13,236 bases of DNA. It comes from a virus. The stretch is taken from the IMG/VR virus record IMGVR_UViG_3300032038_001305. One strand, given 5' to 3'. Under the pieces are notes generated by a model. That model had not been told where the DNA came from. It made no database searches and saw only the letters and a list, made by a program, of their open reading frames with translations. The position numbers and the translations under genes are program-made. Shown here in pieces: positions 4,455 to 4,540 of the stretch (position 1 is its first letter; every line of letters starts with the position of its first letter).

Positions 4455-4493
4455 GAGGATTGATGTAAAAATCAATCCTCTTTTTGATTTTTA
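4455..4493 (+). terminator. rho-independent terminator T1 (10-bp perfect stem GAGGATTGAT / ATCAATCCTC, loop GTAAAA, then a T-tract)
   Basis: The hairpin at 4455-4480 is followed by TTTTTGATTTTT. The T-tract runs straight into the -35 TTGATT of promoter copy B. Confidence 0.75.
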
Positions 4494-4512
4494 TAAAAAA
4501 ATATGATATAAT
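4484..4512 (+). promoter_or_regulatory. sigma-A promoter copy B (TTGATT-17bp-TGATATAAT, extended -10)
   Basis: TTGATT at 4484-4489, a 17-nt spacer ending in TG, TATAAT at 4507-4512, then the conserved leader ATATATATAAAGAAAAAAAGGTGATATT before the ATG at 4541. Confidence 0.65.
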
Positions 4513-4540
4513 ATATATATAAAGAAAAAAAGGTGATATT

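Follow-up and report, generated by a model that had tools for sequence, protein, structure and literature searches.

Early promoters read by the host RNA polymerase are known from phages T4 and T5, and sigma-A early promoters accompanied by terminators occur in the host-takeover module of SPO1 and in Herelleviridae of Staphylococcus and Listeria. The early dependence of SPO1 on sigma-A is restated in one study (PMC13401047). The closest described system is the promoter-early stem-loop (PeSL) cassette of T4-like phages (Arbiol et al. 2010, PMC2839356; Comeau et al. 2014, PMC4122927). A PeSL is a repeated unit that combines a strong sigma-70-like early promoter with a terminating stem-loop and finishes in a Shine-Dalgarno sequence and a start codon (PMC2839356). 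PeSLs occur together with ORFans, and their activity both as promoter and as terminator was demonstrated (PMC2839356; PMC4122927). Here, we describe a repeated promoter cassette in a 13,236-nucleotide (nt) stretch of viral DNA, IMG/VR record IMGVR_UViG_3300032038_001305 (the window, at its full length). The cassettes are probably sigma-70/sigma-A-type promoters read by host RNA polymerase and fused to intrinsic terminators. The element is of a known kind, a phage early promoter–terminator composite, in a new uncultivated phage family in which the stop codon TAG is recoded.

The cassettes resemble PeSLs as a repeated composite of promoter, stem-loop, Shine-Dalgarno sequence and start codon, and in variable regions both are mostly associated with ORFans. 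A stem that overlaps the −35 element or lies just upstream of it is also known from some PeSL subclasses. In contrast to PeSLs, the stem was fixed at the −35 edge, with a U-tract consisting of the −35 element and the spacer, and no conserved AT-rich region was present upstream of −35. The hairpin sequences were mutually unrelated and the same promoter also headed tRNA genes. The phage family differs as well, being uncultivated, approximately 120–200 kb in genome size, TAG-recoded and equipped with an SPbeta-like DnaE-type polymerase.

With other phage early promoters served by host polymerase, the cassettes share the many near-consensus −35 and −10 elements, the conservation beyond the hexamers and the arrangement in short, terminator-closed units of small genes without assigned function, divergent from adjacent late genes. 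The conservation was unusually complete in comparison, with a near-invariant block of ~45 nt common to genomes that share only 63% identity in the vault-protein-like protein. For alternatively coded (TAG-recoded) gut phages, it was proposed that early genes are translated in the standard code before a code switch (Borges et al., bioRxiv 10.1101/2021.08.26.457843). The phages described here are similar to those in having in-frame TAGs concentrated in presumed late genes, tRNA(CUA), low GC and gut or rumen sources. The terms 'promoter' and 'RNA polymerase' are absent from the main text of that study, so no promoter class was described there (10.1101/2021.08.26.457843).

Promoter cassettes in the window

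Four cassettes, starting at positions 883, 4484, 7708 and 11525, were located on the plus strand in the same orientation, at start-to-start distances of 3601, 3224 and 3817 nt (Table 1). These were the copies reported in a first-pass annotation of the sequence, and none was expected by chance (0 matches to the 50-mer in 200 shuffles of the window). With up to three mismatches, the copies at 883 and 11525 were the only ones recovered by the 50-mer quoted in that annotation. The other two, at 4484 and 7708, had the boundary between the T-tract and the A-tract moved by one base (T5-AT-A7 and T7-AT-A5, respectively) and were clearly the same element. All four copies consisted of TTGATT, a 17-nt spacer and TATAAT, as expected from the sigma-70/SigA-like promoter proposed originally. 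The extended −10 TG, initially ascribed to the cassette in general, was present in the copies at 4484 and 11525 and absent from those at 883 and 7708. Cassette 4 matched the 40-nt query core of the family scans without mismatches. Cassette 1 was located where the minus-strand genes diverge from the plus-strand genes, and it was not preceded by a hairpin (z = +0.2).

The distance between the −10 element and the ATG was 29–35 nt, and a purine-rich ribosome-binding site (RBS) was located in between, which was of the GGAG type, GGTG, GGGA or AAGGA. The A-rich leader and RBS described earlier were thus present in each copy. Folding of the four leaders indicated no structure beyond that of shuffled controls (z of −2.0 to +1.2), ruling out a structured RNA element. 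An Rfam search with the leaders and the hairpins yielded no known RNA family, with just two sub-threshold chance matches.

Some mechanically called open reading frames (ORFs) cross the promoters. One of them, listed with a TTG start at 11525, reads through the cassette 4 promoter and is an artefact, and the calls at 11525–11872 and 4381–4506 are spurious N-terminal extensions or small ORFs of this kind. Translated, the motif reads (L/M)IF(I/Y)KKYDIIYI; the same peptide heads ORFs in relatives, for example a DnaE-like ORF in locus L021.

Conservation of the motif across viral contigs

A degenerate 36-nt version of the motif was scanned over IMG/VR viral contigs. It had matches in at least 120 stretches, most of them on contigs of 120–200 kb. 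In the retrieved loci, the ~45-nt block was carried by at least 89 contigs, and as many as 18 copies were found on one contig. To avoid circularity, one half of the motif was used as the seed and the other half was read out. The unseeded half was near maximal information at most positions, comprising TTGAT, the T-tract, the A-tract, ATAT, TATAAT and ATATATAGAAA. Seeding on the −35/spacer half (positions 0–19) gave approximately 1.6 bits at the unseeded TATAAT positions. When −10 and the downstream sequence were the seed, TTGA was found exactly 17 bp upstream in 96.6% of 203 unique instances, whereas a distance of 16 bp accounted for 0.5% and one of 18 bp for 0%. Among these instances, TTGATT was the −35 hexamer in 80% and TTGACA in 6%. 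A TG at −15/−14 was present in 48% of the family instances and TRTG in 40%. The positions with the highest information were exactly those contacted by sigma. Upstream of −35, information was at most 0.4 bit per position across the family, i.e., there was no conserved UP element.

Pairs of copies matched with the whole motif, in which −10 belonged to the seed, diverged by 0.3–0.5% in the −10 element. Copies within a genome were nearly as divergent as copies from different genomes (0.187 versus 0.225 for the spacer). The sequence is therefore maintained by shared functional constraint and not by recent copying. Concerted evolution was ruled out as the source of the conservation on the same grounds.

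In the related loci L001–L008, every copy of the motif was on the gene strand. A co-oriented gene or tRNA start was located just downstream of 202 of 366 motifs, versus 19 of 366 in a mirror control. A Shine-Dalgarno sequence with an ATG followed 53–70 nt from the motif start in 60% of copies, and a tRNA gene followed directly in 47 of 380 copies. The motif also headed tRNA arrays, a DnaE-type DNA polymerase and suppressor tRNAs. The predicted regulon is wider than the 'host takeover' proposed for the window. Very large tRNA arrays were observed in relatives (L086, L093, L045, L048 and others), in which copies of the motif were interspersed among as many as 26 tRNAs within 15 kb. A transfer-messenger RNA was predicted in L103 (1336–1758).

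The block after −10 (ATATATAGAAAGT, to approximately +10) was equally conserved in 28 tRNA-driving and 208 protein-driving copies. This places it in the promoter or the initial transcribed region and argues against a translation enhancer, the function suggested initially for the leader, the rest of which is unstructured A-rich sequence with an ordinary Shine-Dalgarno sequence. More generally, the sequence after −10 might act in the RNA, as a shared 5′ end that either enhances translation or is recognised by a phage or host ribonuclease timing the decay of early transcripts. An early regulon controlled through decay has a precedent in T4, where RegB cuts early mRNAs at GGAG. The conserved block from approximately +1 to +12 is in agreement with this idea, as are the A-rich, unstructured leaders in the window, which would favour ribosome loading. 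Nevertheless, we consider an RNA-level function very improbable, since the block is not specific to translated genes and the leaders had neither structure nor a match in Rfam.

Hairpins at the −35 edge

Upstream of −35, cassettes 2–4 consist of the hairpin itself (Table 1). The GC-rich and mutually unrelated hairpins that had been noted at three of the promoters were recovered, and all three led straight into the TTGATT of the next promoter. The U-tract of the first hairpin is the following TTGATTTTT, the final base of the second is the first T of the cassette 3 −35 element, and the 3′ arm of the third includes the TTGAT of −35. A U-rich tract, UUUGAUUUUU(U), was located right 3′ of each of the three stems.

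Hairpins were enriched about tenfold at the −35 edge across the family. Perfect stems of 6 bp or more, including 3 or more GC pairs and ending between −8 and +3 relative to −35, were detected in 36% of 277 copies versus 2.6–3.2% of controls. Based on folding energy, the hairpin-bearing share was 44% of copies. At the site after the vault-protein-like gene, a strong hairpin was present in each of seven genomes (z of −3.2 to −8.0), with unrelated sequences. Retention of the hairpin with unrelated sequence indicates selection on structure and not on sequence.

The T runs were 5.3 in copies with a hairpin versus 4.0 in copies without. The T-tract belongs to the promoter consensus whether or not a hairpin is present, and the terminators appear to have been made by putting a hairpin before a pre-existing promoter. 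The T-tract was originally assigned a double role, as the −35 element and as a UP-like element. It supplies the −35 element and the upstream half of the spacer, but it cannot be a UP element, because a UP element would be located upstream of −35 and the T-tract is located downstream.

TAG recoding and the motif

None of the 19 gene stops in the window was TAG (14 TAA and 5 TGA). The NADAR gene (11051–11512) contained an in-frame TAG at 11195–11197, which aligned to glutamine in the closest relative, L001. A minus-strand ORF with a strong RBS (782..600) contained two in-frame TAGs (744–746 and 636–638). In several related loci, the coding density increased from 0.06–0.46 to 0.54–0.90 with TAG as a sense codon, and ORFs of relatives contained 5–13 TAGs each. 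Twelve tRNA(CUA) genes were detected in the relatives; a tRNA search of the window yielded none inside it. Based on the in-frame TAGs, the lack of TAG stops, the TAG-rich relatives and the tRNA(CUA) genes, the lineage very likely reads TAG as glutamine.

Motif-linked genes were depleted in TAG, with 1.2–1.8 TAGs per 1000 codons versus 5.2–7.4 in genes on the opposite strand. The motif was located upstream of 21% of TAG-free genes versus 5% of genes with at least two TAGs. For five of the twelve suppressor tRNAs, the −10 element of a motif was found 59–84 nt upstream on the same strand (Table 1), and for three others (L049, L060 and L083) a motif was present approximately 1 kb upstream with only tRNA-Val in between. 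The suppressor tRNA itself appears to belong to the motif promoter class. The TAG-poor, motif-linked genes fit the published idea of early genes in the standard code. Read from the sequences, one promoter motif links these genes to the suppressor tRNA, which is an addition to that idea. A crude k-mer search upstream of TAG-rich genes yielded no convincing distinct late-promoter motif.

Recognition of the promoter and the host

The strict TTGA-17-TATAAT geometry, the downstream co-orientation, the hairpin enrichment, the retained hairpins of unrelated sequence and the TAG depletion support the interpretation of the cassettes as sigma-70/sigma-A-type promoters fused to intrinsic terminators. We infer recognition by host sigma-A, the positions of the transcription start sites, the termination efficiency, the early timing and the autonomy of the units. 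The first-pass annotation had divided the window into autonomous units of an early phage region read by host polymerase. The comparative tests agree with units in a region of the early type, whereas their autonomy, early timing and use of host polymerase are predictions.

Several observations weigh against this interpretation. The whole ~45-nt block was conserved, including the spacer and up to approximately +10, which exceeds the needs of a host sigma factor and may point to a factor specific to the phage. Each U-tract contains a GA interruption, which bears on termination efficiency. A motif-linked ORF in the heavily recoded locus L096 contained four TAGs; with TAGs in motif-linked genes, the rule of early genes in the standard code only is not absolute.

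The block might be the recognition site of a phage-encoded factor. Such a factor could be a sigma factor or an RNA polymerase; it could also be an activator or a shut-off repressor working in addition to the host enzyme. The near invariance of the spacer and of the initial transcribed region would then reflect protein contacts and not a tuning of promoter strength. The high information of the unseeded half, including the spacer and ATATATAGAAA, would be explained, as would the conservation of the downstream block irrespective of the type of gene that follows and the similar distances within and between genomes, which indicate shared constraint. However, the strictest features (TTGA, 17 bp, TG and TATAAT) are those of host sigma-70-type promoters. 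Neither the beta-prime DFDGD motif nor, by phmmer, a homologue of SPbeta YonO was found in the ~1.4 Mb sampled, which consisted mostly of promoter-flanking fragments and covered the genomes in part. To our knowledge, no phage-polymerase promoter (T7-like, N4, phiKZ-like or YonO) has a −35/−10 geometry, and the strict sigma-70-like geometry in these partly sampled genomes sets the motif apart from that promoter class. We regard a phage-encoded factor in place of host recognition as unlikely; an activator or repressor alongside host polymerase would be compatible with the cassettes being host-read promoters.

Firmicutes sigma-A recognises this −35/−10 consensus. The Shine-Dalgarno sites of the window genes were strong, and the DnaE-type polymerase of one family member was approximately 40% identical to SPbeta YorL and to polymerases of Enterococcus phages, with YorL as the closest. 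None of the T4 hallmark genes was detected among the DNA sampled. Motif-bearing contigs in metagenome-assembled genomes (MAGs; L129–L158, GTDB) mostly had Bacillota labels, in addition to Treponema, Alistipes and Methanobrevibacter. Together, the Shine-Dalgarno sites, the DnaE kinship and the MAG labels point indirectly to a Firmicutes host. The labels probably belong to complete phage genomes mis-binned as bacteria or archaea, so host inference from them is weak. The MAG contigs of 128–176 kb with the motif were labelled Mollicutes, Bacilli, Clostridium, Acutalibacteraceae and Methanobrevibacter, and a 57-kb contig was part of a Treponema MAG.

Possible gene exchange at the cassettes

In the PeSL sense, the cassettes might mainly be portable recombination modules, with exchange between copies shuffling the flanked genes and transcription control being secondary. 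Compared with L001, breakpoints were located at the 3′ edges of cassettes (4530 and 11576); the gene after cassette 2 (4541–5071) was replaced in L001 and the gene after cassette 4 (11585–11872) was absent. Across the related loci, 15.3% of 176 breakpoints were in cassettes, versus 4.7% for random positions, and the flanked genes were mostly ORFans. However, the enrichment was weak against a null of gene boundaries (11.7 ± 2.3%), and PeSL-type recombination between copies is not established here. The genes affected by insertion or deletion in the window had a cassette on one side only, the hairpin sequences were not conserved, and the divergence within genomes, nearly that between genomes, argues against frequent gene conversion. 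A primary role in recombination is therefore quite unlikely in our view, and the cassettes are better read as promoters of the host-polymerase type. L001 was 82–91% identical to the window and also lacked the gene at 10560–11033, and the window left of 1121 was unrelated to L001.

Genes of the window and predicted units

The window had approximately 19 plus-strand genes and a GC content of approximately 29%. The four predicted units are listed in Table 1 together with the probable counter-defence and RNA-repair genes, a gene set that is typical of early phage genes. No function was assigned with PHROGs to nine of ten unannotated window proteins. The vault-like protein (1965–4436, 823 amino acids, aa) was conserved in the family and matched the shoulder and repeat domains of the major vault protein in Pfam (E = 1e-20 and 4e-9). 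Eight relatives in IMG/VR were 63–94% identical and were encoded on contigs of up to 240 kb. The protein was also 38–44% identical to proteins of uncultured huge phages of 462–735 kb (LR756500, LR756501 and LR756503). A megablast search of the whole window against GenBank phages gave no match at the DNA level.

At the left end, minus-strand genes run off the edge of the window. Positions 1–590 of the minus strand encode the N-terminal part of such a gene, with a GC content of 42% compared with 22–33% elsewhere and without a Pfam match; the jump in GC suggests that this part is a different module or was acquired recently. At 797–831, between the divergent gene blocks and directly upstream of the RBS of the minus-strand ORF, the two arms of a perfect 15-bp inverted repeat enclosed a 5-nt spacer (TTATTTAATATAGAT-TTTAC-ATCTATATTAAATAA). 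The repeat was present in none of the fetched loci and could be an operator or a hairpin in the 5′ untranslated region of the minus-strand, possibly late, genes.

Table 1. Coordinates of the cassettes, hairpins, predicted units and selected genes. Positions refer to the window unless a related locus is named.
Feature	Position	Strand	Description
Cassette 1, promoter core	883..911	+	−35 TTGATT 883–888; 17-nt T-tract/A-tract spacer; −10 TATAAT 906–911
Cassette 1, discriminator and leader	912..945	+	predicted transcription start ~A918/G919; unstructured, A-rich; GGAG RBS; precedes ATG 946
Cassette 2, promoter core	4484..4512	+	TTGATT, 17 nt, TGATATAAT (with extended −10); −10 ends at 4512
Cassette 2, discriminator and leader	4513..4540	+	GGTG RBS; precedes ATG 4541
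Cassette 3, promoter core	7708..7736	+	TTGATT, 17 nt, TATAAT; AG replaces TG at −15/−14; −10 ends at 7736
Cassette 3, discriminator and leader	7737..7766	+	GGGA RBS; precedes ATG 7767
Cassette 4, promoter core	11525..11553	+	TTGATT, 17 nt, TGATATAAT; −10 ends at 11553
Cassette 4, discriminator and leader	11554..11584	+	AAGGA RBS; precedes ATG 11585
Putative intrinsic-terminator hairpin	4452–4483	+	13-bp stem; −19.6 kcal/mol; z −5.8; after vault-protein-like gene (stop 4436)
Putative terminator hairpin	7685–7708	+	10-bp stem; −16.9 kcal/mol; z −3.5; overlaps stop codon of gene 7450–7686
Putative terminator hairpin	11497–11529	+	14-bp stem; −18.8 kcal/mol; z −5.9; overlaps end of NADAR gene (stop 11512)
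Predicted unit 1	946..4436	+	72-aa ORFan, HD-domain protein, 118-aa ORFan, 823-aa major-vault-protein-like protein
Predicted unit 2	4541..7686	+	ORFans, RlaP-type nucleotidyltransferase, metallophosphatase, T7 gp5.9-like RecBCD inhibitor
Predicted unit 3	7767..11512	+	ORFans, RNase T-type exonuclease, RNA-ligase-like protein, NADAR protein
Predicted unit 4	11585..13023	+	two ORFans, metallophosphatase; may extend past 13023 (window end 13236)
Probable counter-defence/RNA-repair genes	1164–1580, 5318–6130, 6137–6958, 7450–7686, 8335–9114, 9131–10576, 11051–11512, 12262–13023		HD domain, RlaP nucleotidyltransferase, two metallophosphatases, T7 gp5.9-like RecBCD inhibitor, RNase T exonuclease, RNA-ligase-like protein, NADAR
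tRNA(CUA), L026	4030–4103		within 59–84 nt after motif −10
tRNA(CUA), L095	6287–6360		within 59–84 nt after motif −10
tRNA(CUA), L127	2260–2333		within 59–84 nt after motif −10
tRNA(CUA), L042	7283–7356		within 59–84 nt after motif −10
tRNA(CUA), L114	11874–11968		within 59–84 nt after motif −10

Proposed mechanism and biological meaning

The cassette would be a strong promoter with TTGATT at −35, a fixed 17-bp T-tract/A-tract spacer, an optional TRTG extended −10, TATAAT at −10 and an AT-only discriminator. Transcription is predicted to start 7–8 nt past −10, at approximately 918/919, 4519, 7743 and 11560 in the window, giving a short, unstructured, A-rich leader that ends in a Shine-Dalgarno sequence. 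The last gene of a unit would close with a GC-containing hairpin, for which, in three of four cases, the TTGATTTTTT of the next promoter would serve as the U-tract. In this way, a single element of approximately 90 nt may end one transcript and start the next. The expected outcome is a series of discrete units of 3.2–3.8 kb, each with its own promoter and 3′ hairpin. The promoter class would serve the part of the phage programme that can be expressed in the standard code of the host, meaning early genes and probably also middle ones. Among these are genes for counter-defence and RNA repair, tRNA arrays and replication genes, joined in relatives by the amber-suppressor tRNA.

A further-reaching proposal, which we advance tentatively and rate as somewhat unlikely, is that the ~45-nt block is the master signal of the pre-switch programme and that the fusion of terminator and −35 enables re-initiation on the spot. 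A single class of host-polymerase promoters would then drive both the TAG-poor genes and the amber-suppressor tRNA, and the change in genetic code would be an output of the regulon. A polymerase just freed of its RNA would re-initiate at the fused promoter, and the array would form insulated, kinetically coupled units. Post-termination sliding and re-initiation of RNA polymerase were observed in single-molecule work (PMC6978380, PMC6978322 and PMC10372574).

The ~45-nt motif may be used as a ready sequence marker for the predicted early, host-polymerase-dependent regulon of a large uncultivated family of gut and rumen phages. Since this regulon would be tied to the change in genetic code, the switch from the standard to the alternative code becomes testable at the level of transcription. 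The fusion of terminator and promoter would also offer a clean natural template for re-initiation by a terminating polymerase at an adjacent promoter.

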